Assembly: GCA_016748015.1 (NCBI GenBank)
Contig: JAAOMT010000226.1
Span: 124,001 to 188,000 of the forward strand
DNA: 64,000 nucleotides
DNA from: Geosiphon pyriformis uo1
Taxonomy: Eukaryota; Fungi; Glomeromycota
Direction: 5' to 3'
Below, piece by piece: positions 1-30,208 of the stretch. The position numbers and the translations under genes are program-made. A model generated the notes under the pieces. That model was not told the DNA's origin. It ran no database searches and saw only the letters and a program-made list of their open reading frames with translations. Numbering within the stretch: the stretch's first letter is position 1; each line of letters starts with the position of its first letter.

Positions 1-841
1 AGAAAGATATCAATGTGAAATAGATAAAGATTAAAGGTCATTTTGGTATTTGTGACAATAAAAAAGCTGATGCTATGGCTGGTAATACTACATGCTCTCA
101 GTTTTCCTTGCTGGTGGGAGTACAAAAATGTTTCTTGATGGCTAAGGACATGGTTGTGTTTGGCAATTCTTGGCATTTTATTCAAAACTTGTACAGATCT
201 ATTTGTCATGCTCATTGGGAAGTTGGACTTGGTTGTAATATTGTTCCAAATGCTTTGATTGGAAATATTAACTGGAGAGCCACTTCAAGAGTATAGCATC
301 TTGACTTGCATATGCTTGTGGGGTCTACTAGTCAAAAGTTTTCAGTTCTACATTTGTATCTAATAAAAGCTGTACATCATAACTTCTAGTGGCAGTTAGG
401 AAAAAATTGTATAATAAAAGTTATCCTGGTGTACAATGTTTGCTGTGTGGTAAAGTGGAGCTGCCTGATTATGTTTTTTCATGTGCCTTGAATATTGGTG
501 TTCAGGAGGAGATTTTGGCTAAGGCTTCTGCTTCTTGAATATCTTTGGTAGGAGCTGGTGCTTTGTCTTCTTCTACTGTTTTGTGGTTTCTTGATCTGTG
601 CTTATTAGATATTGGTCTATACTCAATTGTGTGCAAAGGGTTTGTTATGGAGGATTGGTATGTGGAAGCAGCTGGAGTTTTTGATAATAGAAAAGAGACT
701 GTGGGTGTTGTTGTCGATTATGTAAGATGTTTTGTTAAGTTACATTGTTCTAGGATCTGGCTGGTGAGATTTAAGCATAAGGTAGATATAGAAAGAGCTG
801 GTTTGGTCAGGAATGGTGAGTTGGTGTCAGGTCTGACATGG
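1..841 (+). mobile_element. Degenerate non-LTR retrotransposon (LINE) ORF2 3' part: end of RNase H and C-terminal CCHC region; interrupted by element A
   Basis: Reads VK*IKIKGHFGICDNKKADAMA (RNase H WxKxKGHxGxxxNxxAD motif, TGG>TAG), then YPGVQCLLCGKVELPDYVFSC; the reading continues after 30212. Confidence 0.8.
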
Positions 842-1616
842 TGTTACAAGTAATTATTTGGGGTCTTAAATCAAATAACAAACTCATAACTTGGTGCTCA
901 ATATCTACTCTGATGGCTGATGGTGATAGTATTAGTATGTTGTCTTTATCTGAAGGTTTTGATTGAGAGTCTTTTGTATAATAGACAGAGATTCAATGAT
1001 GAAATAGTTGGTTGGTGAATGGTGTTCCCAATTTTTGTCTTCAGTTTGGTGGCCAGTTTATTTTGGCAGTTGTGCTTTTTTAGTAAGCTATCTGTTAATA
1101 TATATATAATTTTATCCTTATTTCTGGGTCTTTTACCAGACTATCTGTAATGTTAATTACTCAGTGCTTTAATCCTTAACCAGTTAGTATACAACAAGAA
1201 AATCAAGAAAAAGAAAATAAAAAGAAGAAAATAAAGAAATGAGCCAAGACAATATGCAAGTTAGGATCTGTCAATAGCCGTGATCAAGAGCTATTGTTTC
1301 AGTGTGGTTAAGTATCAATTGCTATCAACATGAAATGTTAATAGTGAAGAGTAAGTGGAATGGTAAATAATTATTTATTAATATTTGTGAATAGAAGGTT
1401 GCTTAGATAAAATCTAAACTAAGAAGTCTCTAATGGAAGGATTCTGTTTTTTTACTTTTAACACTACTGCTATATATACATAATTAATGTTCTATGAGAT
1501 TGCTCACATTCCTGAGTGATGTGCTATGATTTCTTGAGCAATGTGCTCATGTACCACATACTATTCACTTATTGGTCTACTATTTCCCTATATCTGTTTT
1601 CTTTTTATGAGTAATA
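842..1616 (-). repeat. 3' LTR of A
   Basis: TGTTACA...GAGTAATA; homologous to 29334-30208; purine tract abuts it on the minus strand. Confidence 0.93.
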
Positions 1617-1630
1617 TTATCTTCTTCTTT

Positions 1631-2297
1631 TTAATATTGAGCTCCGTCAAAATCTTCATTCTGAATTAGCTCTAATACTTTTTTTTCTAGTATTGTTTGT
1701 TCAATTTTATTTTTTACGTTTTCTACTTGTATATTGTTCATTCTTCCCCATTAATTAATGGTTATGGTTTCCCATGTCAGAGTGTAACAGTATTTCTGGA
1801 TAGTTCTAAAATATGTTGTGTAGTCAATAAATTGTTCTCACATATAGTGTTGAGTTTGTCTTTTTTTCAATAAATTCTTTAATTTGCTGTATTATGTTTT
1901 GGTTAAATACTCTTTTGAATTTGTTGATATACAACTTCTGAATATTCAACTTTTGACCTAATTAATAGTAGCAGTATAATATTGGAAGTTGTTCTGTCTA
2001 TTGCTTTCAATTCTCTTTTGTAAGTTCTTTTGTTAGTGCCATAATAAGTATTTTTCCAAAAGTGTTTCTTACTTTTTCTATTATGTTATTTGACCAGTTT
2101 TTATTACTCTTTGATATTTGCTAATATGGTGTATTTTTTGTTTTTTTTTTGGTATTTCAATAGCAAATTGTTTGGTTGTTAATGATAATTTCTATTTTTA
2201 ATAATTGTTAACTTAATGCCTGAAATAATTGCTAAGCTATGATGTGAATATGATCTGGTATTTCCATTTTCTTGGTTGCTTTTGTTGTGTATACTGT
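1631..2297 (-). pseudogene. ORF3 of A (accessory ORF after integrase)
   Basis: Homologous to ORF3 of C/D/E; ends DFDGAQY* at the PPT; several premature stops. Confidence 0.75.
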
Positions 2298-2326
2298 GTC
2301 TTTATATACTCTTTTATTGTTTGATT

Positions 2327-3703
2327 TTATGTGTTTGGTCCAATGATTATGATTGGTTCCAGATCTCGTGAAATCTCATCTGGTTGGACTAGTATTTGTT
2401 GTACTCCTAATTGTAGAATGTTATTGGTAGATGATGATACTATTTGGTGATATGATTTCAGTCAATCACCATGTGCTGCTTTGGCTAAAATTTTGTTGTC
2501 TCATCTTAGTTTATAAGCTCCATTTCCGAGAATTTCTTCTATGTAAAATAGTCTGTCCTATTTGGGGTCAAATTTTCCACTCCATTGTTTTTTTGCTTTG
2601 GTACGATGTAAAAGTACTTTGTCTTCAATCTTGAATTTAACTGGTTTGTCTGGTAGTTGATTATCATGTCTTTTTTTTTGTTTTTCTTGTGACTTTTGGA
2701 TGTTATCAGCTGCTCTTTGCCATTTATTTTCTAATGTTTCCATTAAGTCATATGTTCTTTTTAGCAATGTTTCCTGAAAATTGTCTTCAGTTATTGGTTC
2801 TGTTAGATAAGTGGTGACTTCCATCTCAACTGGTAATGTTGCTGTTCTACCATATACTAATTCAAATGGTGTTGCTTGTATAGTGTCTTGCTTCATTGTC
2901 CAATAAGCAAATAATACTAATAGTATGAACAAATCCTATTTGTTCTGATTTTCTTGACTGATCTTGGCGATTGCTTTACACAATGTTTTGTTAAACCTCT
3001 CAACTAACCCATTTGTTTGTGGATAGTATGATAATGATAATGGTTTTTTGATTCCAAATCTCTGACTTAATTCTGCTAATGTTCTGTTCACAAAGTAAAT
3101 TCCTTGATCTGATAATAGTTCTTTTGGACATCCATGTTGACAAATCAAATCTTGATGAATGAATTTGGCAACAAATTCTGCATCTGCTCTTTAAATGGCT
3201 TTTGCTTTTGGCTATTTAATGAGATAGTCCATGGCTACTGCAATATATCTGTTGCCTCTGCTGGTGATTGTTAATGGTCTGACTAAGTCAATTCCAATGT
3301 AATCAAATGGTTGTCCCACTTTAATTGGTCTTAATGATTCACTTGGTCTTGTTCCACCTCTTTTCTGACAAACATCACAATTCTGAACATATTAGATGAT
3401 GATTGGATACATTGATGGCCAATAATATCTCTTTCTGATTCTTTTTATGGTTACTTCTTTATAAAAATGTCCTGCTGTTGGGTTTGAGTGCATGTTAAAT
3501 AATATTGTCTCTTTCTCTGGTTCTGTGATTACTCTAATTGGTTGATCTGAATTTTTTCTGTTCTTCTAGAAAAGTATATTTTGATGGTTGATCAAATATT
3601 TTGATTGTTGTTTTATGTTTCTTTGTTCTTTTTGAGATAATTTCTCCTTGAACAATTGGATATTTATATAATATTGAAGTTGTTGGTATTTTTGTATATT
3701 CAT
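2327..3703 (-). pseudogene. Integrase of A
   Basis: MNIQKYQQ start, H2C2 region, LLSDQG, PQTNGLVERFN, TPFELVYGR, tail LEPIIII. Confidence 0.9.
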
Positions 3704-3733
3704 CTTTTGTTATATTTTTGGGTTGGAATGTTT

Positions 3734-6700
3734 TTAGATTTGTCTCATTTGTGACAGTCCGTCAGCATTTCCATTGTCTTTTCTTTTTTTATAATGTACT
3801 GTATAATTAAATGATGAAAGTTCTATTTTCTATCTGGCATGACAATTGTTTGCAAATTCTTGTTTCTGAATTGAAGTCAATTCTTTGTGGTTAGTATACA
3901 CATCAAACTTTTGACTCAAGTATTCCTTCCATTTGATAACAGTCCAATAAATAGCTAAGTGTTCTAGTGCTGGAGTTTCATAGTTCTTTTCAGCTGGACT
4001 TAAGCTTCTACTGGCATAAGCTACTGGATGTTCTTTTCCATTGGGTTTTTTTTGTGAGAGTACTGCTCCCAATGCTTGGCTTAATGCATCAGTGGTAATT
4101 ATAAATAGTTTGCTGTGGTCTGGATACATCAATACTGGAGTTTGGATAAGCTTTTTTCTTAATATATCAAAAGCTTTTTGTTGAGTTTTTGTTCATTCAT
4201 ACTTCATATTCTTTGTTTGGAGTTGGTATAATGGTTGAGCTATTTTGGAAAAGTTCTTAATGAAGCAGTGATAGTATCTGGCAAATCCCAAGAATGCTCT
4301 CAATTCTGTAAGATTATTTGGTACTGGAAAGTTCTTAACAATCTCAATCTTGTCTGGATCTGTTTTTATTCTATCTTTGCTCACCACATGTCCCAAAAAC
4401 TTGAGTTCAATTTTTCCAAAGAAACATTTGGTCACATTTAGCTTTAGTCCAGCTCTTCTTAATCTTTCAAACACTTGTTGAAGATGATACAAATAATCAT
4501 CAAATGTTTTTGAGAATACATTGGTGTCATCCAAGTATACAACTACTGATTTCTATAGTAATCCAGTATAGACAATTTCTATGAGCTGTTGGAATATTGC
4601 TGGAGTGTTCATCAAGCCAAATGGCATGACTTTAAATTCAAAATTTCTCTTTTTTGTGATAAATGCTGTTTTCTCTTTGTCGGCTGGATTTATGACTACT
4701 TGCCAGTAACTACTATCTAAATCCAGTGTTGAGAATCATTTATTTCCTCCAAAAGCATCAAATTCTTGAATCTTTGGAGTTGGATAGCTATCACCTTTAG
4801 TCACTCCATTCAGTTTCTGATAATCCACACAGAAACAGATCTTTCTATTTTTCTTCTGGACTAGTACTACTGGTAATGACTATGGGCTCATTAATGGCTG
4901 AATTAGTCTGTTGTTAAGCATTTGGTTAATTTCTTGATGAATGATCTCATGGCTAGCTGGTGGTACTCTGTATGCTCTTTGTTTAATTGACATTGCATTT
5001 CCAGTTTTGATCTGATGCTGGATGATGTTGGTTCAACCAAATTCATTTTTGATCGCAAAAATGTTATTGAAATTGTTGAGTAACATTTTTAGTTGTATTT
5101 GTTGAAGTGGGTCTAGATTCCCCATGTTTATCTGTTCCAATTGTTTTGGTTGGAGCAGATAACATTCACTTCATCTATAGATGGTTTGTGATGTGATGTC
5201 CACATATCCACAAAGTTGTGGAAAATCTGAAACGTGGTTTGGTGGTTGATCCTCAACTTGAGTGACTAAATATTCAATAATAGTTCCTTTTGGTATTTCG
5301 ATGACTTTTTCAGTTGCTTTATAAATGGGAATTTTGATGTTTTTGGGGTTTTTGGCTGATATGTAGAGATTAGTAAGTCCAATCTCTCCTAATTCACAAA
5401 TGGTGGCTTCTGCTTTAAACAATTAAGCTTAATCCTTTACTTTTCTTTTTATGGCTAACATATACTGGTCATATGATGGAATGGAAATTAATTGATGGGT
5501 TGAGATAATTTCTCTTTTGTCAACAATTTTTTTCTCTGCCATATTGACTGATATGTCTATTCTACTCATTGATTCAAATCTCTGTATCCTCTTGCTGTTA
5601 TACCTAATTTTTCTCTTTTTTCCACTGAAACTAACTGAGCTATTTTTACCAGAGGTAAGAATATTGTCTGTGCTATCTTTTCATTTGGCTTTATAATATA
5701 GGTCTTTTCTGAGTCATTTTGTAGCATGGCAATGATATTTCCTATGTATTCTATATCAATTATTCTTCCTTTGATGTTGATTTTTTTTTTCGCTAAACTA
5801 CTTTTAGATGCTAATTGGACTATAGTTATTGCTAGAATTTTCAGAGCTATTTTGAAATCAATACATGTGTGTGAATTTGGTTCCAATTTGATGGCTTCTT
5901 TTCCTGGATATCTCAGATCAAACCCTATATCAGTATTATGTGTGCATTCTGACATGATACCTTCATTATTATTACTATACCATTTAAGTTCCTGCTCCTT
6001 AGAGAGATCAGGAAGTGCAATGTATATTTTGAGATTGAAATCAGAGTTTAAATTATTAATATTTTCATTGCTATATTGCGCAGAGCTAAAACAGGTGTTT
6101 TCATCATTGTCATTGTCAAAGTTTGAATCGGGATTGAAAACTGATTCCGATTCTATTATGCAGCTGCTAATTGGTTCTTCTTCTGAGATCGTGTAGATCA
6201 TGCATAGTGGTGAATTATAAATGAGGTCACACTCATTACAATATTGAAAGTCATAAGGAATTAAGCAATGTTGACATAACTGAGTATTCAACTGCTTCAA
6301 ACGCTGCTTTTGTTCTTCCCTGGTAGATGCTAGCTCTTAATAATGTTCATGGAATTGTTCTGGATCTAGAAAATTTATGACTGGTTCTGGGTTCCAGTCA
6401 AGTTTTATAGGTTCAGATAGGTTATTTTTAATCGTTTTTATTTCTTCTGGAGTCACTTCTTCAATTTTGACAAGTACCATTTGCCAGATTTCATCATCAT
6501 CATGTGGGCATCTGTCCAGACATTTGATGGCTCATCTCCAAACAGCATCTATGGGCATTTTTTTTTACCCAGTTGCTTATAAGAATCGTGTATTGACATG
6601 ATTTGTTACATGTTCCTTCTCAACCAGGAATGTCATTCCATATTTTTTCGTCCAAAAGAGTTTCTCCACAAGCCAAGCAGGGTTTGTTATCCCATTTTTC

Positions 6701-7202
6701 TACTCATTTTGGTCTTTTAAAACATTCAAGGACACATAGGCGACAATAGAATTTGGTTGCTGAAGTATACTCCTCATTGTCACTACAGCAAGCACCCATT
6801 GATGACAATTTCTTACTGCAATTGACACACACCAGTTTTGGATGATGATAAGTAGATTGTTGTGGTGTAGTGTAGGAATTATATGTGGTGGTGTTGGTAG
6901 ATATTAATCCTTTTTCTTTTTTCTTTCTTTTTTTTTTTGTCTTTTCTTTCCATTCTTAAGTTGGTTCTTCTGAGTCGTAGTTGGTTTCCCAGTTTTGGTT
7001 GGCATTCTAGGTAAGTTTTTTTTTCTGCTTTCCTTTGCTGTTGTCATCCCATGAAGGTACTGGCAGCAGCTTATTGTATTCTGTGTCAGCCCAGAAAACT
7101 TGATAGACTTCTCAGGTAGGTTTTTTTTCTTCTTTCTTGAATTCGATGAGTGGTGTTGTCGAGTTAGTGGTCTTGAAATAACCACACATGGCTAATACAT
7201 AT
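3734..7202 (-). pseudogene. A pol: Cys-rich module, dUTPase (~5560-5940), RT, RNase H
   Basis: LCQHCLIP; GFDLRYP..SKSSLA..GRIIDIEYIG..IAQ; YLDD; TTDALSQALGAVLSQ..PVAYASR. Confidence 0.9.
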
Positions 7203-8204
7203 TGTTACCAGAGGTTTTTGGTCTCTTTTTTTAAATGTTGTTAATGTTGATTTGCTGTGAATTCACATTTTCAGGAAGTAGTTGGACCTTTAGTAACTGA
7301 ATTTATCTTCAAATTATCTCCTATAATTTGAATTACTGGGCTTATAAGTGGAATAGCCAATTCTTTGCCAGTTACTTTATGTAGTTATGTTGTAGTAAAC
7401 GTCAACTTTTTCTCAGGAATTGCTCATCTGGAAGCTCATTAAAAATGTGTAGTTACTTTGCTGTGAAAGTCAACTCTTCTACAAAAATCTCATTTGTAGG
7501 CTACTCTAATGATTATAATAAGAAAATAAAAGAAATGTAAAAGAAATTGAATTCTGTAAAGGGAAACGTTTTCTATCCAGGCCTGGAGTCACTAACAGTT
7601 TACTGAAATTGGTAGCTAATCAATTTCAAAATGTTAATTGTGTTTTGGAGGTTTTCCAAGTGCAATAATTTAAGGAATTTGGTTTTTTGAATTATTTGAT
7701 ATTTTATTTCTTTTTTGTGTGTAGGAATAGTTCTAAGTAATAAATCTAAAGTAAGATACATTTTCTTGAAAAAAAAAGCTCTTCTTTAATACAACTTGTT
7801 GTAATACTAGTCTATGGACTTGTACTTTTTCTCTTTGCTTAAATTTTGGTGAACTAAAGATACATTTTAATGAACTACAAATTATTTCGCTGAATTATTG
7901 ATTAATTTGGGTGAACTATTCATAATTTTGGTGAATTTTTATAAATTTTGGCGAATTTCTTATAAATTTCGGCAAATTTCTGTAAATTTTGGCAAATTTT
8001 AGAATGTTACAAAGTTCAGGGTATTGTATAATTTGATCATTCTACTTTCTGTCATACTAATTGAATTATTTAATTGAATTGTGATATGTGATAATTGATT
8101 AAATAATAAGTAATAATTTGAAATAATATTAATATACTAATTAATTTATAGAAATTATAAGAGTAATTTTATGCTAATTGATAGCTAAAATTCTACTGGT
8201 AACA
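7203..8204 (-). repeat. 3' LTR of B
   Basis: TGTTACC...GGTAACA; contains a ~20-bp AATTTTGGCGAATTT array at ~7840-8000. Confidence 0.93.
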
Positions 8205-8900
8205 TAATCTCCTCCTCAAGACTGAGCTCCGTCAAAGTCCAAGCACTATCTGTGATATTGAAATAGTGATCCAAAATAATTGAAGTAATCTGATCTGAAA
8301 ATTGTTGAAATTTCAGTTTTGTGAGTTTGCCAATGTATTGGATTTTTATTGGTTGCAGTATTGGATTTTGTAGAACATTTTCACAAGTATTAAACAAATT
8401 ATAAAGTCTAAAAGCTGCTCTAAGTTTGTAGTGAGTATTTGTTAGTCCAGCTGCTGTTTTAAATTCATTGTGAATTTGTTTTTGTATAGCTTCAGGAGTG
8501 AGATTTGTTGCTTCAAGTTCCAGTTTTTGTTCATAAAGTGTCTTTCCAATGTGAAAGTATTTATAGATAGGGGTGTGTTCATTGTTTTGTTTATTGAGAA
8601 GTAGTAGAAGTTTTTGTTACATTGTAGCATTCGGTAAAATGTCAATAGGGACAATTAAAAAATTTTCTTCCAGTGCTTGCTTCAAAAATCTTGGTAACCT
8701 ATTTTCAGAGTGACTTCTTGTTTTTCTTCTATAGGGGTGATAGTTCTGTGGATGATTTACTACTGGGGCTGTGGTTTTTTTCTAAATATAATTAATTTGA
8801 CTTCCATTAATTGTTATGAATAAGTCAGGAAGTGTTTTCAAGGCTAACATTAACTTTTGGGATATTTGTTAAATATTTTAGGGAATAATAATGATAAAAT
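8185..8900 (-). pseudogene. ORF3 of B
   Basis: Frame reads ITINGSQI...YKYFHIGK...RAAFRLYNLF...IGKLTKLKFQQFSDQITSIILD, which aligns with ORF3 of C/E; start uncertain. Confidence 0.7.
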
Positions 8901-9018
8901 TGACTAATTATGAAAAAGGAGAATAAAGAAAATTATTTTTGGGTATGAGGTTTTTATTTTTTTTATTTTTATTTTTTTTTTGTGTAATTATTTTTTTATT
9001 AAAAAATTATTGTAAAAT

Positions 9019-10346
9019 TTAAGTGTTCAAGTTTGGTTGTTGTTCTATTATAATTATTGGTTCTAAATTTCGGGGAATATCTTTAGGATTAATTAAAGAA
9101 GAATGTGTATCAATTTGTGGAATTAATAGTTCAGGATTGTTTTTGGAATAATAGTGTTTCAATCTGTCTCCATGTGCAACTTTTGCTAGTATTTTGTCAT
9201 CAAATCTTAACTTGTATGATCCATTGCCTAGAATTTCATGGATATAAAATGGTCCATTCCATTGTTTTTCAGCCTTAGTTCTGTATAAGAGAACTTTATT
9301 TTCAACTTTAAATTCGTTGGTAATGGGTGGTAATTTGTTGTCATGTCTTTCTTTTTGTTGAGCTTGAGAATGTTCAATATGAGTTGCTGCTATTCTTTTT
9401 TTTTCTTCCAGTGTACTAAAAAGAGTGTAGGCCCTTTTTTAGAGTGTTTCTTAAAAGTTCTCTTCATTAATTGGTTGCACAGAGTATGTTTCTACTATAA
9501 AATTAATTGGTAATGTTGCTGTTCTTCCATAAATTAAATCAAATGGTGTGTGTTTTGTAGTATCTTGTTTTAGTGTTCTGTATACTAGTAACACTAATGG
9601 AATAAAGATATCTCATTCCTGCTCAAAATCTGTTGAGACTTTGGCTAGAGATTCATACAATGTTCTGTTGAAATGTTCTACAAGTCCATTTGTTTGAGAG
9701 TGATAAGGTAATGATAGAGGTCTTTTGATATTGAATTATTCACAAATTTTTTGTATCAAGTTGTTCACAAAATGTGTTCCTTGATCAGATAAAAGTTCAA
9801 TTGGGCATTCATGTCTACAAATAATGTCTTCATAAATGAAATTTACTACTGATTTTGCATCTGTTTTTTGGATGGCTCTAGCTTCAGGCTATTTGATTTC
9901 CTTGGATTGTGATAGGTAATAGTCTGACTAAATCAATTCCAACTTTGTCAAAAGGTTGTCCAACTTTGATTGGTTTTAAAGGTTCTGTGGGGCAAGTTCC
10001 TCCTCTTTTTTGACAACTATCACAAGATTCTATATATTGTTGAATGTTTTTTGCATGTGAGGCCAAAAATAATGTTCAAGAGTTCTTTGAATTATTCCAT
10101 CTCTTCCCAAGTATGCTGAAAACGGATTTGTGTACAGTTATATAAAATTGTTTCTTTTTCATTCTCTTGTACTAATCTGAGTGATTGGTTTGGATTTTTG
10201 TGATTTTTATAATAGATTTTGTTATGGTGTATAAAATATTGCTTTGATTGGTGTTGTAAATAATGTTTTTTACTTGGAGACCAATTCTCTGACATGGTAA
10301 GAGTCTCCAAATAGTTTTTAAGATTGCTGTAGTTTCTGGGATCCAT
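9019..10346 (-). pseudogene. Integrase of B
   Basis: MDPRNYSNLKNYL; CDSCQ; LLSDQGTHF; GPFYI; tail NLEPIIIIEQ. Confidence 0.88.
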
Positions 10347-10403
10347 TGTTGTTTGGTTATTTTGTTGGTAGGTTGGTAAGTTATGATGGAATTGTTGTTG
10401 GTG

Positions 10404-12075
10404 TTAGGCTTGTTTCATTCTTAAGAGGCTATCAACATTGGTGTGTAGTTTTCTTGGTTTGTAATATACAATATATCTGTAGTCTGCTAGGAAGTCATTC
10501 CATTAAGACTGTTTGTCACTTTGTTCAGTTTTCTTTTTATTAAGCCATTTGAGGCCAATATTGTCAGTTATTATGTCAAATTCTTTTCCATTCTTCAGGT
10601 ATTGTTAAAAGTGTTTGAGAGCCCAGATGACTGCAGTGGCTTCCAATTCAGTTGAGCCATATTTGAGTTCTGTTGGCTTGAGTGTTCTACTGGCATAAAC
10701 AATAATTTGTTCCTGGCCATTTTCATTCAATTGTGATAAAATGGCACCAAATGCTATGTGTGAAGCATCAATAGCTAATTGAAACCATTTGTTAAAGTCT
10801 GAATAAGCAAGAATTAGGGCTGTTGTCAATTTTGTTTTGAGAGTTTCAAAAGCTTTTTGTTGTTCTTCAGTCCATTTGTATGACACGTTTTTGTTGGTAA
10901 AATAATTGAGTGGTTTGGCAATTTCTGAGAATCCTTTTATGAATTTTCAATAGTAAGAGGCTAATCCTATAAATCCTCTTAGTTCTGTAGTATTTTTGGG
11001 GGTTTAAAAGTTTTTGACAGCACTGATTGTTCCTGGATTTGGTTTGACTCCATCTTTACTAACTATGTGTCCAAGAAAAATCAAGCTTGTTTTTTCAAAG
11101 TGACATTTCTCAATGTTTAACTTTAATTCTGCTTTCCATAATCATTGAAAAACTTCTTGCAGGTGAATAAGGTGGGCTTCAAAGCTTGGTGAGTATATAT
11201 CAATATCATCAAGATAGACAATTATTGATTGCCATAAGAGCCCTTCATATACAACATCTATGAGTCACTGAAATGTTGTTAGTGCATTGCAGAGTTCAAA
11301 AGGCATAACATTAAACTCATAGTTTCCTTCTTGAGTGGTGAATGCTGTTTTGGGTCTATCTTTTGGGTCCATTTCGACTTGCCAGTATCCACTTTCCAGG
11401 TCTAAAGTTGAGAAGAACTTGGCTTTTCCTAGAGCATCTAGCATGTCATCAATTCTTAGAAGAGAGTAGACATCTCCAATTGTAACACTATTCAGTTGTC
11501 TATAATCAACACAAAATCTGATTTTTCCGTTTTTCTTTTTAATTAAAACTACTAGTGAGACCCAAAAACTTCTTGATGGTTGAATCAATCCATTATTGAA
11601 CATTCTTTGGACCTCTTCTCTAATGAATTGGTGGCTGGCAGGTGGCACTTAATAAGCTTGTTGACGTTTTGGTGGAGCATCTTCTGTATGATTTTGATGT
11701 TAAACAATATCCATTTTTCCCAAGTCATTGTTGTCTTTTGCAAATATATCTGCAAATTCAGCTATCAATTGTTTCAATTGTCTTTGTTGTTGAAGTTCTA
11801 AGGAATCCATGTTGATTTGAGAGAGTTTTTCTTCTAAAATGTGGTAGTTTTCAGTAGTGGAAATAATATTTGGATTTGGGAGTAGAGTGTGCTTTACAAT
11901 TTCGATGAAATTAGAGACAATTTGAGAGTTTTTATCTTGAAAGATATTGCTGTGTATAATTCTAATTTCTAATTTGTTTAATAAGACAATAGGGTAATTA
12001 TTGGGGTTGTAGAATATAACTTGAAATTTTTTCATTCTTTTGGGAATATAAACGTTTGGAATTGATATTTCATGC
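10404..12075 (-). pseudogene. B RT-RNase H
   Basis: RFCVDYRQLN, LDLESGYWQV, YLDD, AIDASHIAFGAILSQ. Confidence 0.9.
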
Positions 12076-12974
12076 TGTTATTCATAGAATATAGGAAATA
12101 TATTATTATTAGCAAGTAGATATTAGCCAATCAGAAATAGATGTAGTAAATGTAGAATTCCAGGATTCCTCTTATTAAGAATTGCAGGATTCCAGGAATT
12201 CCAGGATTCTTGTTACAAGGAATTGAAGAATTGAGGAATTTCAAATATGTATATATAACAGTAGTATTAGAAGCAGAAAAAAAGAAAGAATTAACACCAA
12301 GAATCCTTAGCTTAGTTACCACAATCCTCAAATAAATAATTATTCACTATATTAGATTCATTCTTCATTATCAACACTTCATGTTAATAGTAAATAATAC
12401 TTAACCATACTAAAACAGTAGCTCTTGATCACAGCTATTGATGGGATACTAACTTGCAAATTGCCTTGGCTTATTTTTTATTTTTTATTTTATTTTTTCT
12501 TTATTTTCTTTGCTGTCTACTAACTTGATTAAAGAATTTACTCTTGGAGGACTTACGGAGGAATAAAACACACTTAAACAATACTTACTTTTAGAGAACT
12601 TATGGAGGAATAAAACTTACTTAACCAATACTTACTCTTGGAGGACTTATGGAAGAATAAACTTGCTTAAACAATACTTATTCTTGGAAGACTTATGGAG
12701 GAACTGACATCAGAAAACAGCACTGACATACACTTATGGAAGATATTGTATTAGGAGAATCATCAACCATCAAGCTGAGCAAGCAATTGATGAAACTACA
12801 GTTTCAGGAAACTACTAATAAACTGTTATTACTGAATCTCTGTCCATTATACAAAGAACTCAATTAGAAAACCTTTAGATAAAATACCTTCAGATTATCA
12901 TCATTATTAATTGCTTTGAGCACCAAGTTACGAGTTTATTATTTACACAACACCTCAAAGAATCACCTGTAACA
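12076..12974 (+). repeat. 5' LTR of C
   Basis: TGTTATTC...TGTAACA; TATATA ~12250; AATAAA 12331; four ~47-bp units at 12538-12703. Confidence 0.94.
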
Positions 12975-12976
12975 TT

Positions 12977-12993
12977 TGGTGCTCTCTGTGAGG
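12977..12993 (+). promoter_or_regulatory. Primer binding site of C
   Basis: TGGTGCTCTCTGTGAGG, 2 nt after the LTR; equivalents in A, D, E, F. Confidence 0.85.
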
Positions 12994-13035
12994 TATAATT
13001 CTATAGAGAACCAGTGCCAACAACATTATCCAAAC

Positions 13036-16000
13036 ATGGCAGAATCAGAAATTATAGGAGCCAACCACTTAGGATTTGCAAAATTCTTGTTTCAACAATA
13101 CAGTCAACAATTAGGATTAAACAGTAATCACTACCCAGCCAAATCAGCCTTCAACTATTACATCAATGATAAAATCACAGACTGTTTAGGAGGAACTGTT
13201 AATATTGAGTCAGCAAGAGAAAATTTTTATACAGAATTATTTCAACACACCAGCTTACCAAGAAATTACAGTTTCACCCCAATCATCAGGGAAATTAATC
13301 AAATCATTGAAAGATACATACAACAACAATTTTCCATTACCTACGCAGACAAAGGTAAAGGAAGAATACAAACACCAGCAGTGACACCAAAAAGAATACA
13401 GTTACCTGGTTGGAAGAAACACAGAGTAGAATTACCAACCACTCCATCATATCACTACATACCTGGAAGCACCATCAACATTTTATCAGTAAACATGTCC
13501 ACATTAAACATGACATTAATATTTGGAAGATTTCAGTTTCAAAGCAAACAATGGAAAGAAGACTTACTAAGACCATATGGTGCATATTTTGAAAGATTTA
13601 AATCATGATCCCTAATGCCATCAGGAATTCAATTACCAATACCCTAACCAGATTTCAGAGCTGCTACTCCATGGAAATTATTAGAGAAAGAAGAAAAAGG
13701 AAGTGAAGATCAAAGATTTACTTACCAAAACTCAATCTCAGAAAACTCGGAATTCGGAATCCCAAACATTCAAACTCTGCAAAACTCAAACATAGAAAAT
13801 CTGGAAATTAAAACTCTGAATATTAGAACTTAGCAAAATCAAAACAATCAGAACTCCAATTTAATTAATCAGCCAAACATACTTCCAAATATTGTCATCA
13901 ATCACCCACCAATTGATCCGATAGTCAAACCCATTTAGCAGCCACCTCAACAATCAAATCTGCAAATCCAACAGTCACAAGGACCACTTTAGCAACCACT
14001 ACTGCAACAACAACCACTACAGCAGCCATAACAACAACTAAACATAAACCAAATGGCCTACGCACCTATTGCCAAGTTAGAAAACTTTACTGATGAAGAA
14101 GACGACACTCAAGCATGAATCAATGACATCTCCAAGGCCATTATAGTGAACAATTGGGATGATGCCAGAGTCTTATAGACAATCCCATACTTTCTCAAAG
14201 AAACTGCCAATTCTTGGTATCAGAGTTTAGCTGCCAGATCACAAACATTCCAACAATTCAAAACTGCCTTTCTGGAATATTTTAGCAACAATAACAGTAT
14301 TAATTGTCTAGCCAATACTTTCACCACAATCAAACAGAATAATACTGAAGCAGTCACAACATACCTAGAATGCTTTCATAAAGTCCTATGCCAAATTCAA
14401 GCCATCAATGCTGTGTATTTCACAGAACCCCAAATCCTCAACCAGTTTATTTGTGGCCTGCACAGTAGCATTTTGCAACATGTACGCCCATTACACCCAG
14501 CCAACCTTCAAGCTACAATTACACATGCCAGAGATTTTGAATTAGCTGAGCTAAAAGCCAATCACACTCAAACTGTAAATTTAATAATGAATGGATCATC
14601 TGATTTGGATTCCAAATTGAAGCAAATCAGTGATATCATCAATCAGAAAATAGAGGGATACTTAGCTGACAATAGCATGATTTATCAACCTTCTCAACAG
14701 CATAACAATTAGGGAAACAGGAATTGTTTCCAAAATCAGTTACGTCCATTGTCATCATCCAATCAGCAATGGCAGCCAGAGATGCATGTTTGCCACAACT
14801 GTGGTAAACAAAGCCACATAAAAGCCAACTGCAACACTTATAACTGACAATCGGGAAATCAACATTGAAACCCTAATCACCGATTCCAAACCCTGAATCA
14901 ATATCAAAATCAAGAGCAAAATTAAAACACTTACCTGCCAATGATGCAGCAGCCAATTTATTAAGCACCAATATATCAGACTTCAGTTTATTAACCGCAG
15001 CCACCAGCAATATATCAACTGCAGCCATTCATAATATATCAACCACACCCACAAGTAATCTATCAATCTCAAACCATTCAAACACCACTCCAAAACTTAC
15101 CTCAACATGGAACCCAAAGACTGAGAATAACACAACAAAACTGAAGATTGGCGATGGTTGTCTACCAACTGATCTTCAGTTCTTCTAACTTACCATCAAG
15201 ATTACATTCTCGAAATTCGGGTACTGATACCACCCAAAATCTGAATTCCCAGAACTATTTAAGTCTTCTGGTTACCTCAGAAGACATCACACCCAACAAC
15301 CCGGAACCCAACCCAATCCAAAAACTTACCAGCAATGGTTACTGAAAATGAAACATTAGCAGCCATCTTCCTGTTTGAGTTCGAAAAAACCACCCCAGTC
15401 CTATTATTCAGTGGAACCACCCTTGAAGAAAAACTCATTACAGCAATGTATACTAATGCCAAAGTAGATGGCCACTCCATTAAATTAATCCTAGACAGTG
15501 GTTCAGCAGGCAGTATTATCATGTGACAACTCATGGACCAATTAAGTCACTGAGTTGATCGTGCTGCTAGTGCTCATATAATCACTGCTGATAGAGCAAC
15601 CAAAACTCCAATCAGTAAAATTGACAATTTCCCATTCAAAATCAATGGCATTATAATACCCATAAAAGTCTTGGTAATGAAAGCCACTTAGTATCAAGCA
15701 TTCATTGGCAATGATTGGTTATTCAAAACCAATGCAATGCTTGACTGGACCACCCAGAAACTCCAACTCAGCCAAAATGGCCAACACACACGAGTCCCAG
15801 CAACGTGTGGCCATTTCAAACTCAGCAATATTAGGACAACAACACTGCTTATCAAATTCAAGAAGGAAGAAAACAAACCAATGTGGAAAGTGTATCAAGT
15901 ATTATGGACCAAGGTTGACCACAATGAACTGCCACCAATACTTTCTTGGAATGACAACAACAACGAGAAAAGAAAACAAAGAGCAGAACTTACCTGGGAA

Positions 16001-19000
16001 ACAGATAACCTGACTTGAACCAATAATGACAAACTGACATTGAGCTGGGAATGGAAAAAAAACAAAGAAAGCAATAAAGGGAAGAGAAAAAAGAAGGAAG
16101 AAGAAACAACATTCACTAACACCACTGCTCATAACTCACACATTTATCTATTAGTACCAACTAATTATCATTGATCAAGGCTGATATGTGTTGATTGCAG
16201 CAAGAAATTGTTGTCAATGGGCGCATGCTGTGGCAACAATGAAGAATATTCAATGGCCACCAGATTCTACAGCTGCGCATACATCATAAAACACTTTAAA
16301 AGACCAAACCAGGTGGGAAAATGGGACAATACACTATGTTTAGCTTGTGGAGAGACACTTTTGGACGAAGGAATGTGGAATGACATTCCTGGTCAAAGAA
16401 AAATATGTGATACTTTGTGCCAGTACACAATCCTTATCAGTGATTGGGTTAAGAAAAGGACATCCATAGAAGTCGTCTGGAGAAGAGCAGTATGATGATT
16501 GAAAATTTGTTTACATAACAATGATAAAATCTGGAGAATAGCCTTCACCAAAATTCAAGAAACATTATCCAAAGAAATCAAAGAAGTCAAAAACAACCCA
16601 CCAGAACCCTTAGAACTCAATTGGGACAAAGAACTAGTCATAAATCTCTTGGAACCAAAAGAGTTTCATGAACATTATCAAACTTTAACACCTACAAAAG
16701 AAAAACAAGAGCAATATTTGGCCCAAATAAACACCAGACTATGTGACCACTGTTTGATTCCCTGTAACTTCCAATATTGTAATAAGTGTGACCTCATTTA
16801 CAATCCACCACCACGCATGATCTACACAATCCTAGAGGAAATTGAACCAATCAGCAGCTGTGCATCCAAATCGGAATTACTGTTCAATCTCGATTCAAAC
16901 TCTGACAATGACAATAACAAAAACACCAGTTCCAGCTCTGTTCAAATTGGCAATAGCAATGACAATGATTCCAACTCAGATTCAAACTCCGACCCATAAT
17001 ATGAACAATATATTGCACTGTCAGACTTTTCCAAAGAACAGAAGTTAAAATGGTATAGTGACAATAATGAAGATATTATGCCAGAACACACACATAATAC
17101 TGATGCTAAGTTTGATCTGTGGTATCTAAGAAAAGATGCCATCAAATTAAAACCACATTCACGCACTTACATTGATCTGAAAGTAGCATTAAAAATCTTA
17201 GCAACAACAATGGTTCAACTAGCATTTAGGAATAGTTTAGCAAAAAAAGAGATTAATATAAGAGAAGAAATAATTAACACAGAATATGTAGGAAATATCA
17301 TTGTTATGCTACAAAATGATTCTGAAGAGGCCTATATCATAGAGCCAAAGAAAAAAATAGCACAGACAATATTCCTGCCTCTGGTGAAAATAGGGAGAAA
17401 TTAGAGATAACAGCAAAAAGAATACAGGGATTTGGATCAATGAGTAGAATAGATATACCAGTCAATATGGCAGAAAAAGAAATTGTTGACCAAAGAGAAA
17501 TTATCTCAACGGGTTAAGCAATTTCCATTCCACCATATGGCCAGTACATGGTAGAGATAAAGTGGGAAATAAAAGAACAGAATCAGATTTTTGAAGCAGA
17601 ACCAACCCTTTGTGAATCAGAAGAGATTAGACTCATCAATCTCCATATACCAGCCAAAGATTACAGCCACATCAAAATTTCTATCTATAATAACACAAGA
17701 AATGTCATAGTAATATCAGCTGGAATCATCATTGGATACTTAGACACTAAAATAGAGGATCAACCACCAAGCACCATTTCAGACTTTCCACAGCTTTGTG
17801 AATATGTCAATATCACATCACAAACAATATACAGATGAAGTGAATGTTATTTGCTCCAACCAGAGCAATTGGAACAAATGAACATAGAAAACTTAGACCC
17901 ATTCCAATGTATGTAGCTTAAGATGTTGCTCAACAATTTCAACAACATTTTTGCCAACAAAAACAAGTTTGGCCGAACTGACATTATCCAGCATCAGATC
18001 AAGACTGGAGATGCAATGCCAATTAGCATACAGAGTACCACTAGCTAGCCATGAGATCATTTGTTAAGAGATAAACCGAATGCTTAACAACAGGCTAATT
18101 CAATCATCAATGAGCCCATAGTTATTACCAGTGGTACTCGTCTGGAAGAAGAATAGAAAAATCCAATTTTGTGTGGACTACAGAAAACTCAATAGTATAA
18201 CTCGTGGAGACAGCTATCCAACCCCAAGAATACAAGAATTGTTTGATGCTTTCAGTAGAAACAAATGGTTCTCAACATTAGACTTAGACAGTAGTTACTG
18301 GCAAGTAGCCATAGATTCAGCCAACAAAGAGAAGATGGCATTCACCACTAAAGAAGAGAATTTCAAATTTGAAGTAATGTCATTTGGCTTAACCAATGCT
18401 CCAGCCACTTTCCAATGGCTAATAGAAATTGTTTATACTGGCTTATTGTGGAAATCAATAGTTGTATACTTGGACAACACCAATGTATTCTCAAAAACAT
18501 TTGATGATCATCTTCATCATTTTCAACAAGTGTTCGAAAGGCTAAGAAGAGCAGAACTAAAGTTAAATACAATAAAGTGCTTCTTTGGCAAGACAGAACT
18601 AAAATTTTTGGGACACATAGTCAGCAAAGACGGCATCAAAACAGATTCAGAGAAAATAGAGATAGTAAAGAACTTTCCAGTACCAACCAATGTGACTGAA
18701 TTAAAATTATTCTTGGAATTTGCAAGCTATTATTAATGCTTTATAAAGAACTTTTCAAAGATAACTCAATCACTCAATAATCTGCAAACCAAGAATACAA
18801 AATATAAATGAACAAAAAGTCAACAAGAAGCTTTTGATATTCTGAAAAGAAAGCTCATTTAAGCTTCACTACTAATCTATTCAGATCACAACAAACCATT
18901 CATCATTATCACCAATGCATCAGGCCAAGCATTGGAAGCAGTACTATCTCAGAAGAGACCAGATGGTAGAGAACATCCAGTAGCATATGCCAGCCAAGGT

Positions 19001-19270
19001 CTAACACCAGCTGAAAAGAACTATGGAACACCAGAACTAGAACATTTAGCAATCTATTAGGCAGTTATGAAGTAAAATGAATACTTGAGCCAAAAGTTTG
19101 ATATATACACGAATCATAAAGAGTTAACATCACTTCAAAAGCAAGAATTTGATAATGGCTGCCAATTCAGATGGAAAATGGCCCTGTTACAATATACTTA
19201 TACTATACACTATAAGAAAGGAAAAAACAATGGAAATGCCAATGGTTTGTCGCAAATAAGACAAATCTAA
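13036..19270 (+). pseudogene. C gag-PR-Cys-rich-dUTPase-RT-RNase H polyprotein region
   Basis: CHNCGKQSHIKANC; LILDSGSAG (~15490); CVDC/CLAC/CDHC..C..CNKC; dUTPase ~17090-17445; YLDN (from YLDD); ends NANGLSQIRQI*. Confidence 0.92.
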
Positions 19271-19332
19271 GAATATTTCAACCCAAAAATATAACAAAAC
19301 CAGAACAATACCAACGAAAAATATAACAAAAG

Positions 19333-20715
19333 ATGAACATACAAAAATATCAACAACTTCAACATTATATAAACACTTAACAGTTTAAGAAGAATTTATT
19401 TCAAATGGAACGAAAGAGTATCAAACAACAATTAAAATATTTTATTACTCACCAAAATATACTTTATCGGAAAAATAGAAGAGATCTAGATCAACCAACC
19501 AGAGTAATTACAAAGCCAGAAAAAGAGACAATATTATTCAACATGCACTCAAATCCAACAGCAGAACACTTTCACAAAGAAGCAACCATGGAAAGAACCT
19601 GAAAAAAATACTATTGGCTATCAATGTATCCAGACATCATCCAATATGTTCAAAATTGTGATGCTTGTCAGCAAAGAGGAAGAACAAGACCCAATGAACC
19701 ATTAAGACCAATCAAAGTGGGACAACCATTCGACTGTATTGGAATTGATTTAGTCAGACCATTAACAATTACCAGCAGAGGAAACAGATACATAGTAGTA
19801 GCCATGGACTATCTCACTAAATGGCCAGAGGCAAAAGCAATTCAAAGAGCAGATGCAAAATCTATTGCCAAATTTGTTCATTAAGATTTAATTTGTCAAC
19901 ATGGATGTCCAAAAGAATTATTATCAGACCAAGGAATGCATTTTGTGAACAGAACATTAACAGAATTAAGCCAAAGATTCGGAATTAAGAGACCATTATT
20001 ATTACCATACCATCCACAAACCAACAGATTAGTCGAAAGATTTAACAGAACATTGTGTGAAGCAATAGCTAAGTTCAGCCAAGAAAACCAGAATGATTGA
20101 GATTTGTTGATACTATCAGTACTATTTGCTTATTGGACAATGAAGCAAGATACTACACAAGCAACACCATTTAAATTAGTATATAGTAAAACAGCAACAC
20201 TACCAGTGGAAATAGAAGTCAGCACATACCCAACCAAACCAATAACAGAAGAGAATTTCAAAAACACATTGTTGAAAAGAACATATGACTTAATGGAAAC
20301 ATTAGAAAACAAATGACAGAGAACAGCTGATAACATACAAAGGTCACAAGAGAAACAAAAAGAAAGACATAATAACCAACTACCAGATAAACCAGTTGAA
20401 CTCAAGATTGGAGACAAAGTACTACTACATCATACCAAAGTGGAAAAACAATGGAGTGGAAAATTTAACCCCAAATGGGACAGATCATTTCACATAGAAA
20501 AAATTCTAGGAAATGGAGCTTACAAATTAAGATTAAATAACAAAATCTTGACCAAAGTAGTACATGAAAATCGACTGAAACCATACCACCATAAAGCATC
20601 ATCATCCACCAGTAATATTCCACAACTGAGAGTACAAAGAATACTAGTCCAACCAGATAAGATTCCACAAGATCTGGAACCAATTATCATTATTGATAAC
20701 AACACATCCAATTGA
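19333..20715 (+). pseudogene. Integrase of C (own ATG)
   Basis: MNIQKYQQLQHY; H..H..CDAC; GIDLV, SDQG, VERFN; tail LEPIIIID. Confidence 0.9.
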
Positions 20716-20739
20716 TTAACAGAAAGAATATATAAAGAC

Positions 20740-21399
20740 ATGGTCGACACAATAGAAAAACACAGAAAAATAGAAATTACTGACAACATTCATTTATTAG
20801 CACAACAAATCTTTCAATTAATCCAACACCAGGAGATAGAAATTACAATTAATCAACAAACCATTTGATACAAAAGTACTACAAAAATACCACAACACAA
20901 AATACAGAGAAAACTCGAAAATGTTGTTGACAAAATCATAACCAAAATAAAATTGGCCATGAAAGAACAACAAATAGTCAGATTACACCAAGAACTTACC
21001 GAAAAAACTTGGACTTGGTGGATGCAACAATTTCCGAAAAACTATTGTTATTTTTACTTGGGACAACACGTAAATATCCAGAATTTGTACACTGACAAAA
21101 CAAAATGGTTATTTGACACAACAATACTGAGACAACTGAAACAATATGTGGGAAAGAACAATCTAACCACACAAGCTCAAGCCATTTACCAGCTATATAT
21201 GGGATTTCAGGACTAACCAGAAATCTTACTCAACACAGCAATAGATACAGTTACGAGTAATCAATTGGGAAAAATGACCAATGCCCAATTTGAAGAACTA
21301 CAAACTCAAATAACACAAGTAATACTCGAAAAAAAAGTTCAAGAAATAATTCAAGAAGAGGAATTAAAAGAGTTAGATTTTGATGGAGCTCAATATTAA
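20740..21399 (+). pseudogene. ORF3 of C (~219 codons, two premature stops)
   Basis: MVDTIEKHRKIEITD...YFYLGQH...AIYQLY...LGKMTNAQFEEL...LDFDGAQY*. Confidence 0.8.
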
Positions 21400-21412
21400 A
21401 AGGAGGGAATAA

Positions 21413-22341
21413 TGTTACTCATAGAATATAGGAAGTATATTATTATTAGCAAATAGATATTAGCCAATCAGAAGTAGATGTAGTAAATGTGGAATTCTAG
21501 GATTCTTCTCAGAGAAATTGCAGGATTCCAGGAATTTCAGGATTCTCCAGTGAAGAATTGCAGGATTCCAGAATTCCAGGATTTCTCTCATCAGGAATTG
21601 CAGGATTCTAAGAATTCCAGGATTCCTGTCACAAGAAATTGAAGAATTGAGAAATCTTAAATATGTATATATAGCAGTAGTATTAGAAGCAGAAAAAAAA
21701 AAAATTGACACCAAGAATCCTTAGCTTAGTTACCACAATTCTCAAATAAATAATTATTCACTATATCAGATTCATTCTTCACTATCAACACTTCATGTTG
21801 ATAGTAATTAATACTTAACCATACTAGAACAATAGCTCTTGATCACAGCTATTGACAGGATACTAACTTGCAAATTGCCTTGGCTTATTTCTTATTTTTT
21901 CTTTTATCTTTTCTTTATTTTCTTTGTTGTCTATTAACTTAATTAAAAGATTTACTTTTGGAGGACTTACAGAGGAATAAAATGTACTTAAACAATACTT
22001 ACTTTTGGAAGACTTATGGAGGAATAAACTTGCTTAAACAATACTTACTCTTGGAGGACTTATGGAGGAACTGACATTAGGAAACAGCATTGGCATACAC
22101 TTACGGAGGATATTGTACTAAGAGAATCATCAACTATCAAGCTGAGCAAGCAATCGACAAAACTATGGTTTCAGGAAACTACTGATAAACTGTTACCACT
22201 GAATCTCTGTCCATTATACAAAGAACTCAATTGGAAAACCTTCAGATAAAATACCTTCAGATTATCATCATCACTAATTGCTTTGAGCACCAAGTTACAG
22301 GTTTGTTATTCACATAACACCCCAAAAAATTATCTGTAATA
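21413..22341 (+). repeat. 3' LTR of C
   Basis: TGTTACTC...TGTAATA; three ~47-bp units; longer GGAATTCC array. Confidence 0.94.
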
Positions 22342-25300: not shown

Positions 25301-25549
25301 GGCAAGTGTTTCACTGTTAAGATCTTCAGTTTCCAATCGTGAATAGTACACTAGATTATTTTAGAGATTGCTTCTCACTTCTAAAATGTTGTAATTTCCA
25401 AGAAGATAATTGTTGATATGGTTTTCAATGTATTGGTAGAGTGTTCTTTTAACAATTTCAATTCCGTCTGGGATGTTGAATCTCTGTCTGCAATGGGTGT
25501 AAATTGACTGATAATACTCTAGAGTTGTTGTGTTTGGTGTGGTCACCAC
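22342..25549 (-). pseudogene. B gag-protease-dUTPase
   Basis: CYYCGIPGHWKRNC knuckle; LILDSGLAGS; AGYDLRYP..ASRSSLA..GGVIDTGY..IAQ..RGMQGFGST. Confidence 0.9.
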
Positions 25550-25595
25550 TTTGAAGTTTGTTGTTGCTGTGTTATTTCCGTGAAAGAGCACCAAA

Positions 25596-26587
25596 TATTA
25601 CCAGAGGTTTTTGGTCTCTTTTTTTGAATGTTGTTAATATTGATTTGCTGTGAATTCACATTTCCAGGAAGTAGTTGGATCTCCAGTAACTGAATTTATC
25701 TTCAAATTATCTCCTATAATTTGAACTACTGGGCTTATAAGTGGAATGGCCAATTCCTTGCCAGTTACTTTATGTAGTTATGTTGTAGTAAATGTCAACT
25801 CTTTCTCAGGAATTTCTTGTCTGGAAGCTCACTAAAAATGTGTAGTTACTTTGCTGTGAAAGTTAACTCTTTTACAGAAATCTTGTTTGTAGGCTACCCT
25901 AATAATTATAATAAGAAAATAAAAGAAATGTAAAAGAAATATAAAAGAAATTGAATTCTGTAAAAGGAAACGTTTTCTATTCAGGCCTGGAGTCACTAAC
26001 AGTTTACTGAAATTGGTAGCTAATCAATTTCAAAATGTTAATTGTGTTTTGGAGGTTTTTCAAGTGCAATAATTTAAAGAATTTGGTTTTTCGAATTATT
26101 TGATATTTTATTTTATTTTTTGTGTGTAGGAATAGTTCTAAGTGATAAATCTAAAGTAAGATATATTTTCTTGAAGAGAAAAGCTCTTCTTTTATATAAC
26201 TTGTTGTAGTACTAGTCTATGAACTTGCACTTTTTCTCTTTGCTCAAATTTTGGCAAACTAAAGATACATTTTAATGAACTACAAGTTATTTCACTGAAC
26301 TATTCATAATTTCGGCAAATTTTTATAAATTTTGGCGAATTTCTTATAAATTCAGTGAATTTCTGTAAATTTTGGTGAATTTTAGAATGTTACAAAGTTT
26401 AGGGTATTGTATAATTTGATCATCTTACTTTCTGTCATACTAATTGGATTATTTAATTGAATTGTGATATGTGATAATTGATTAAATAATAAGTAATAAT
26501 TTGAAATGATATTAATATACTAATTAATTTATAGAAATTATAAGGGTAATTTCATGCTAATTAATAGCTAAAATTCTACTGGTAACA
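25596..26587 (-). repeat. 5' LTR of B
   Basis: Colinear with 7203-8204; PBS adjacent. Confidence 0.93.
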
Positions 26588-29271: not shown

Positions 29272-29333
29272 TTTTGGATAATTGTTGATGGTGCTGGTTC
29301 TCTGTAGAATTATACTTTACAGGGAGCACCAAA

Positions 29334-30208
29334 TGTTACAAGTGATTATTTGGGGTTTCAAATCAAATAACAAACTCATAACTTGGTGCTCAGTATCTAT
29401 TTTGATGGCTAATAATAATAGTATTAGTATGTTGTCTTTATCTAAAGGTTTTAATTAAAAGTCTTTTATATAATAGACAGAGATTCAATGATGAAATAGT
29501 TGGTTGGTGAGTGGTGTTCCCAATTTCTGTTTTCAGCTTGGTGGCCAGTTTATTCTGGCAGTTGTGCCCTTCTAGTAAGCTATCTGTTAATATATATATA
29601 ATTTTATTCTTATTTCTGAGTCTTTTACCAGGCTATCCATAACGTTAATTACTTAGTGCTTTAATCCTTAACCAGTTAGTATACAATAAAAAAATCAAGA
29701 AAAAGAAAATAAAAAAAAGAAAATAAAAAAATGAGCCAAGGCAATGCACAAGTTAGAATCCGTCAATAGCCATGATCAAGAGCTATTGTTCCAGTGTGGT
29801 TAAGTATCAATTGCTATCAACATGAAGTGTTGATAGTAAAGAATGAGTGGAATGGTGAATAATTATTTATTAGTATTTGTAAATGGAAGGTTGCTTAGAT
29901 AAAATCTAAACTAAGAGGTCTCTAATGGGAGGATTTTGCTTTTTTACTTTTAACACTACTACTATATATACCTTATTAATATTCTACAAGATTGCTCACA
30001 TTCCCAAGCAATATGTTATGATTTTTTGAGCAATGCTCATATTGCTGAGCAATGTGCCCTAATTTTCTAATATTGCTTTATATTGCTAAGTAATGTGCTG
30101 TGTTTTCTGACATTGCTCTACATTGCTGAGCAATGTGTTCACATACTACATATTATTCATTTATTGGTCTACTATTTCCCTATATTTGTTTTTTTTTTAT
30201 AAATAACA
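29334..30208 (-). repeat. 5' LTR of A
   Basis: Followed on the minus strand by PBS TTTGGTGCTCCCTGT; 100 bp longer than the 3' LTR owing to extra CATTGCT..AGCAATG units. Confidence 0.93.

Follow-up and report, generated by a model that had tools for sequence, protein, structure and literature searches.

The question raised by this locus is whether the LTR retrotransposons nested in it chose their insertion sites by sequence and, if so, whether that choice sends new copies into dead repeats. Self-alignment of the window (the whole stretch of 64,000 nucleotides of Geosiphon pyriformis DNA that was analysed) showed two nests, A > B > C and F > D > E, the outermost elements A and F being hosted by two different LINEs. 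About 11% of the window has no repeat origin, 89% being repeat, and a single host gene, PCF11-like, was seen at ~32.3-35.3 kb. The features are collected in Table 1.

Table 1. Elements, flanking duplications (TSDs) and host features in the window; insertion sites are written on the + strand.
Feature	Positions	Strand	Details
Element A, decayed Gypsy retrotransposon	842..30208	-	LTRs ~842-1617 and 29334-30208, 9.6% mismatched; contains B; site tctgac ATGG [A] ATGG tgtata
A left TSD ATGG, C before	838..841	+	within 3' end of LINE ORF
A right TSD ATGG	30209..30212	+	paired copy
Element B, second Gypsy family	7203..26587	-	LTRs ~1 kb, 5.9% mismatched; contains C; site taatac ATAT [B] ATGT gtgtgt
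B left TSD ATAT, likely mutated from ATGT	7199..7202	+	centre CG in paralog C, TG in paralog E
B right TSD ATGT	26588..26591	+	paired copy
Element C	12076..22341	+	LTR 12076-12974, PBS, gag, dUTPase, RT, integrase, PPT, LTR 21413-22341; LTRs 8.1% mismatched; site tatttc ATGC [C] ATGC ttcaaa
C left TSD ATGC with the C at -1	12071..12075	+	span flagged by the original prediction
C right TSD ATGC	22342..22345	+	paired copy
Element D	41538..61721	-	LTRs 11.5% mismatched; contains E; site ttaatt ATGT [D] ATAT atatat
D left TSD ATGT, T before	41534..41537	+	TATA-like part of F LTR
D right TSD ATAT, mutated from ATGT	61722..61725	+	paired copy
Element E	48620..58764	-	LTRs 9.4% mismatched; site ctgctg GCAT [E] GCAT gatcct
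E left TSD GCAT	48616..48619	+	paired copy
E right TSD GCAT, G after	58765..58768	+	paired copy
Element F	41284..64000	+	D splits the 5' LTR; end of an LTR near 62382; leaves window
F sole visible flank GTGA	41280..41283	+	central TG; not ATGN/NCAT
PCF11-like host gene	32300..35300	-	CID, Clp1-interaction and C-terminal domains; non-repeat control
Old LINE, heavily decayed	37212..41279	+	3' part received F

Elements A to F are decayed dUTPase-carrying Ty3/Gypsy retrotransposons, with the integrase placed after the reverse transcriptase as in the Gypsy order, LTR ends of the TG...CA type, a PBS inside the 5' LTR, a PPT inside the 3' LTR and a TSD of fixed length. In element C the domains are Retrotrans_gag/Ty3_capsid (14179-14709), dUTPase (17000-17401), RVT_1 (18122-18733) and Integrase_H2C2 with rve (19603-20097), the integrase comprising H2C2, rve and SH3-like parts; a protease was called in B, upstream of the B dUTPase, and, as to the RNase H expected between RT and integrase, PF17917/PF17919 are carried by relatives among the matches listed. 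The C-terminal ORF of C matches SH3_Tf2-1, and no chromodomain was found at E<=0.05 in the one decayed copy scanned. The only solved structures matched by the integrase piece of C, at weak E-values, were the PFV and Ty3 integrases. All 120 listed relatives of the B dUTPase (the best 120 of 281) are Geosiphon pyriformis proteins with 71-88% identity, and the RT search named no close relative. The LTR-start pattern occurred at 120 loci in viral contigs, none window-like past 14-21 matched letters, and the LTR/PBS pattern at eight loci in metagenome contigs, with no relative by blastn and one weak tblastn match; the LTR pattern had no match in prokaryote genomes, and a related-locus scan of viral contigs with P0006 returned no loci. 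An extra ORF (20869-21216) lies between the C integrase and the 3' LTR and has no Pfam match above the cut-off. The primer-binding site of B (25573-25603) departs from those of A, C, D, E and F after common first bases, so that different tRNAs may prime the two families.

The five TSDs that gave rise to the original prediction (ATGG/ATGG, ATAT/ATGT, ATGC/ATGC, ATGT/ATAT and GCAT/GCAT for A to E) are real and as described, and so are the bases before ATG on the ATG strand (C, C, C, T and C) and the flank of F. A central TG/CA step is present in all five, taking the ATAT copies of B and D as the mutated ones, which the fit to ATGN also requires; this was shown for D, and for B the C-to-T/G-to-A bias argues for it. 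The empty sites of three elements confirm that the TSD has 4 bp: across A the LINE frame picks up at the identical residue 822, the empty site of D is found letter for letter in A's own LTR, and the site of C is crossed by 18 contigs (10 + 8) of B-family relatives, in which ATG(C/T) stands once. Extension to 5 bp fails at 5/5 sites, and a TSD of that length was rejected. Element D landed in a TATA-like ATGTATATATA stretch of the F 5' LTR (41534-41537), and this insertion likely disabled the promoter of that LTR.

Chance is not a good account of the agreement among the five sites. When five sites were drawn at random from the window with a free strand flip, three of the four TSD positions were shared in 108 of 2,000,000 draws, a figure that should fairly be somewhat higher because the simulation gave the mismatched copies of B and D no leeway; ATGN/NCAT makes up 3.35% of 4-mers. 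An integrase with no preference at all, the agreement being due to chance and to a strand chosen afterwards, has in its favour the sample of five, a motif picked afterwards and two mismatched TSD pairs, but given those draws and the non-random flanks at other junctions it is scarcely credible. The central dinucleotide is YR at all six visible sites, against a background of 23%; of the ten half-sites of A to E, as seen from the two LTR ends, all have Y at position 2 and nine have R at position 1; and the -1 flank is C in four sites (p=0.003) and Y in all five (p=0.009), both values being before correction for choosing the position afterwards. The +1 flank is R in only 2/5.

Such a bias could reflect a non-palindromic Y|ATGN motif read on either strand, of the kind that Kirk et al. 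propose for retroviruses, or a soft symmetric preference for R-Y-R-Y. The paired sites fit the first in 5/5 cases, with C at -1 in four of them, and according to the same proposal non-palindromic motifs may underlie palindromic averages (10.1101/034991). The GTGA flank of F, on the other hand, retains R-Y-R and not ATG, while the ATGG of A breaks the R-Y-R-Y pattern at position 4. Under symmetric models, five window sites of ATGN type are improbable (0.0015-0.018 in one set of simulations and 0.013 in another), and the window sites alone favour something sharper than a symmetric motif.

Additional sites came from contigs of run X1 placed on LTR ends; runs X2 and X3 gave no placements. In a first analysis 5,586 contigs were placed, and six of the 357 loose-end rows were used. 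At the D-type 5' LTR start (61721), 23 contigs depart with mixed flanks (agreement 0.44) and the plurality string G,C,A,C; flanks beginning with A are missing from this row, since the flank in the window itself begins with ATAT, an effect that was modelled. The GCAC consensus has a probability of 0.02-0.17 under symmetric half-site models in which G takes 30-45% of position 1, and of 0.0145 under background-weighted RYRY, and it arose in 0/20,000 simulations under strict ATGN/NCAT, central-YR-only or random choice. It bears directly on Y|ATGN: with C as the plurality at position 4, at most 11 of the 23 junctions can be NCAT, and a C there was obtained in 0/20,000 simulations of strict ATGN/NCAT and in 16/20,000 of a half-strict mix. 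In a second analysis 290 contigs were placed and six of 22 rows were used, the remaining rows having <=5 contigs each. Six contigs with mixed flanks join ATGC at the C-type 5' LTR start, T being the commonest non-C flank, which speaks for Y|ATGN. At random, ATGC is expected 0.8 times per 400 junctions (p=2e-4) or 3.0 times per 1,500 (p=0.09, not significant), and its count is inflated because contigs matching extra flank bases are placed more easily; the six junctions thus show a bias without discriminating between the models. A second row at the C LTR start, which may include PPT-side contigs, holds 10 contigs whose last base is not C; its consensus is ACAG, the final G of which neither model predicts. 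All in all, a Y|ATGN motif appears unlikely.

The same data bear on the simplest version of the rule, in which the central YR step alone matters and the outer bases track genome composition. All six visible sites have that step, and it is a general rule of 4-bp integrases, but under this rule five ATGN-type sites would have a probability between 1e-4 (central YR) and 8e-4 (central TG/CA), and the GCAC consensus would appear 0 to 2 times in 20,000; we regard it as very unlikely. Window and junction data taken together are fit best by a symmetric motif in which A and G are both common at position 1, the support for R-Y-R-Y outside the window consisting of a single plurality string, that of the 23 contigs, from which the window's own flank had filtered out flanks beginning with A. 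No model accounts well for both sets, and the true motif may have some asymmetry. As for the preference for CATG-like flexible YR steps that had been proposed, the bias and the flexible central YR step hold, but a strict ATGN/CATG rule is contradicted by GTGA, by GCAC and by the 0/20,000 simulations.

We therefore consider it probable that these sites were selected by a Gypsy integrase with a soft symmetric R-Y-R-Y preference, a bendable central YR step and a 4-bp duplication. Judging from known intasomes, the 4-bp stagger would impose a sharp kink on the target, at which the central YR step loses its stacking, and the two LTR ends would each read a half-site of their own, Y|R-Y. In a CpG-depleted genome such a preference would read mostly TG/CA. 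The prominence of ATG in the five sites can then be ascribed to the AT-richness of the genome, to the decay of CG centres to TG/CA, whether earlier or later than the insertion, and to best-strand flipping, which sharpens a small sample. The motif would choose the exact base inside a region, and the nesting itself would follow from the abundance of repeats and from selection against genic hits, perhaps with chromatin targeting.

The decay of CG centres deserves closer attention, since the original prediction held that flexible YR steps accumulate in deaminated old elements and suggested looking for an ancestral ACG. The differences within the five LTR pairs comprise 381 transitions and 20 transversions. 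Among visible CpG positions 70% differ, versus 22-25% of other cytosines, and the CpG pair states (23 opposite, 22 with one lost, 4 with both kept) imply that each copy has lost ~81% of its CpG since insertion. Changes are frequent at non-CpG cytosines as well, with a bias for a 5' T (TCA 0.33, TCC 0.31, TCT 0.29), the change being low in GCA (0.09) and GCT (0.12). Such a pattern resembles the decay of cytosines methylated in all contexts, or else a RIP-like process; RIP signatures are reported as undetected in Gigaspora margarita and Mucoromycotina. The outer B LTRs are closer to each other than those of the nested C (5.9% against 8.1% mismatched), and LTR divergence is therefore a poor clock here. 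The PCF11-like island (32300-35300) has a CpG o/e of 0.69, against 0.00-0.16 in the repeats on either side, and this step is a sharp edge of the mutagenic mark.

The ancestry of the target centres differs among the sites. The codon at the target of E is ATG in D, ACA in C and E, and TCG in A, states from which we infer that its centre was CpG; no relevant match was found among 120 proteins, so that this ancestry rests on three DNA paralogs. For B, in addition to the paralogs in Table 1, the relatives have Trp in four cases and Arg in one, while 8/13 matches belong to another subfamily (Ile) and are uninformative. The target of A reads Trp in the window, and Gln and Cys in the two LINE proteins that span the site (2 of 5 proteins), a pattern consistent with a decayed Arg (CGN) codon. 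In contrast, the targets of C and D are genuine TG: that of C is His in 55/57 matching relatives and Tyr in 2, and hence not a CpG scar, and the ATGT of D is seen again in the 3' LTR of A and in both C LTRs. Ancestral CpG thus applies to the centres of A, B and E but not to those of C and D, and deamination accounts for 3/5 sites, against ~18% of the ATG/CAT triplets in the elements (107/585 tested, a lower bound) with CpG ancestry. The scars may be older or younger than the insertions, the data fitting both.

It is conceivable, then, that CpG-centred and possibly methylated sites are preferred, that many TG/CA centres are their decay products, and that methylation draws insertions into silenced repeats. 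The excess of 3/5 over 18% (p=0.044), the fact that GCAC is what GCGC would decay to and the loss of CpG from the LTRs all go in this direction. Cytosine methylation is described as having made strong target preferences for a retroviral integrase in vitro (PMC11054761), and a bimodal CG methylation is described in Rhizophagus (10.1101/2021.03.30.436303). But the baseline of 18% is a lower bound, and p rises to 0.10-0.16 if it is 25-30%; C and D stand on genuine TG; no TSD pair retains CG or has TG against CA; the passage from an intact CG to ATG in both copies has a probability of 0.12 per site; and the likelihood is flat with 0-30% of insertions on intact ACG and drops to about a third at 60%. 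A preference for CpG centres is therefore improbable, and a target consisting of CG at every site is ruled out by C and D. A variant in which a 5-methyl-pyrimidine before G is what the integrase recognises, so that A-5mC-G and ATG would be equivalent targets, and in which the CpG methylation of old repeats by the host, with the TG scars it leaves, would mark silenced repeats as landing pads, seems to us more doubtful still; if true, it would make nesting self-reinforcing and chromodomain-free, written in DNA chemistry.

With the R-Y-R-Y preference as the probable rule, the second part of the question can be addressed. The idea that flexible steps accumulate in deaminated old elements and thereby steer new copies into dead repeats found no support. 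ATG/CAT recurs every 30 bp and is as dense in the host gene (3.54% of positions) as in the two nests (3.59% and 3.50%; odds ratio 1.0, with a single gene as control); in the oldest LINE it is rarer (2.34%, p=0.003 against that single gene), and continued decay removes the motif. The same holds for CATG, with 2.7 per kb in the gene, 2.6-3.1 in the nests and 1.2 in the oldest LINE. The low share of ATG/CAT triplets with CpG ancestry, ~18% in the elements, likewise speaks against steering. Two AT-rich spacers, with 2.0% and 0.7% ATG/CAT, lie below the nests, and a taste for ATG would mildly avoid such spacers, toward genes as much as repeats; the density of RYRY is flat over gene, spacers and repeats (4.1-6.2%). 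All six insertions are hosted by repeats, which needs no motif, because the window is 89% repeat and LTRs are given as 41.2% of the G. pyriformis genome (PMC11952901); selection presumably removes genic insertions. It is thus likely that the site preference does not direct new copies into dead repeats, and that the nesting sites reflect the ordinary preference for bendable DNA known from Drosophila Gypsy clades.

Those clades offer the nearest parallel. They too are Ty3/Gypsy elements with 4-bp TSDs and an alternating purine-pyrimidine core, the targets being described as T-ATAT-A in the 412 clade, C-ATAT-G in the Idefix clade and TATA in the gypsy clade (PMC3276498, PMC5408687), and as CGCG in the ZAM group (PMC5408687). 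The half-site of 412 and Idefix, Y|AT, is the left half of all five Geosiphon sites. However, the Geosiphon host is a fungus, the centre is TG/CA (or CG) and not TA, and G/C is apparently common at the outer positions; the ATAT core with its Y and R flanks is not reproduced, the centre being TG/CA and the +1 base a purine in 2/5. The Geosiphon motif acts like the 412/Idefix motif, yet it is a different motif. One review describes sequence-specific integration as exclusive to errantiviruses and their derivatives. Retroviral integrases with a 4-bp stagger, including that of PFV, are likewise described as kinking the target and enriching a central YR step (PMC4422553), the same stagger and flexible centre as here, but the reported PFV consensus V-Y-R-B is weak, and R at position 1 looks stronger in the Geosiphon sites.

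Among fungi, dUTPase-bearing Gypsy elements have been described in Postia, Phanerochaete and Tuber (PMC2864245), and PosPlaTy3-5 is reported to carry its dUTPase between protease and RT, as the Geosiphon elements do. Unlike the latter, with their 4-bp TSD, these elements are discussed together with chromoviruses, and the chromovirus example given there has a 5-bp TSD; a TSD of this length is given for the chromoviruses SM-Tcn1 and Tyl3 (PMC2864245, PMC5014426), and the text available of PMC5014426 gives no TSD for Ylt1.

Chromoviruses have, as a rule, a 5-bp TSD, and the Geosiphon elements depart from it, with 4 bp at 5/5 sites. Plant Gypsy elements are reported to nest often, also within their own family (PMC6911290), as those of the window do, but 4-bp TSDs are a minority there (11.6%, same source). 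According to PMC6911290, plant 4-bp TSDs have GC-richer central dinucleotides in AT-rich surroundings, and nested and non-nested copies have similar TSD logos, which argues against motif-driven nesting.

The observation is therefore real, and the biology behind it is for the most part known. For this lineage it is apparently new to the literature: a search that covered mainly papers outside subscription, and neither supplements nor the genome paper, gave nothing on the length or motif of TSDs in Glomeromycotina elements. Taken as it stands, the observation brings a Gypsy lineage of a fungus, one that covers much of its host genome, under the 4-bp R-Y-R-Y target rule of retroviruses and insect Gypsy clades. 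Two practical consequences would follow. The Geosiphon Gypsy elements would escape LTR finders that expect 5-bp TSDs, and in genomes where CpG decays, TSD logos built from old insertions display TG/CA at places that may once have been CG. The thousands of old insertions, whose paired TSD copies record the state of each site at insertion, offer a test of a preference for methylated CpG; were the integrase to favour it, silencing itself would send new copies into repeats.

Three minor observations concern the decayed elements. Many annotated Geosiphon 'hypothetical proteins' (P0121-P0245) are fragments of these Gypsy and LINE families, and such annotations would inflate the Geosiphon gene count. 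An isolated short piece at 36649-36759 resembles the middle part of an LTR. Finally, in one contig of run X1, the depth of which is about single-copy, the 3' end of an LTR is followed directly by an LTR 5' start (61721, 62382); it resembles a head-to-tail LTR-LTR junction, but as a single contig with 80% likeness it may be a repeat artefact.
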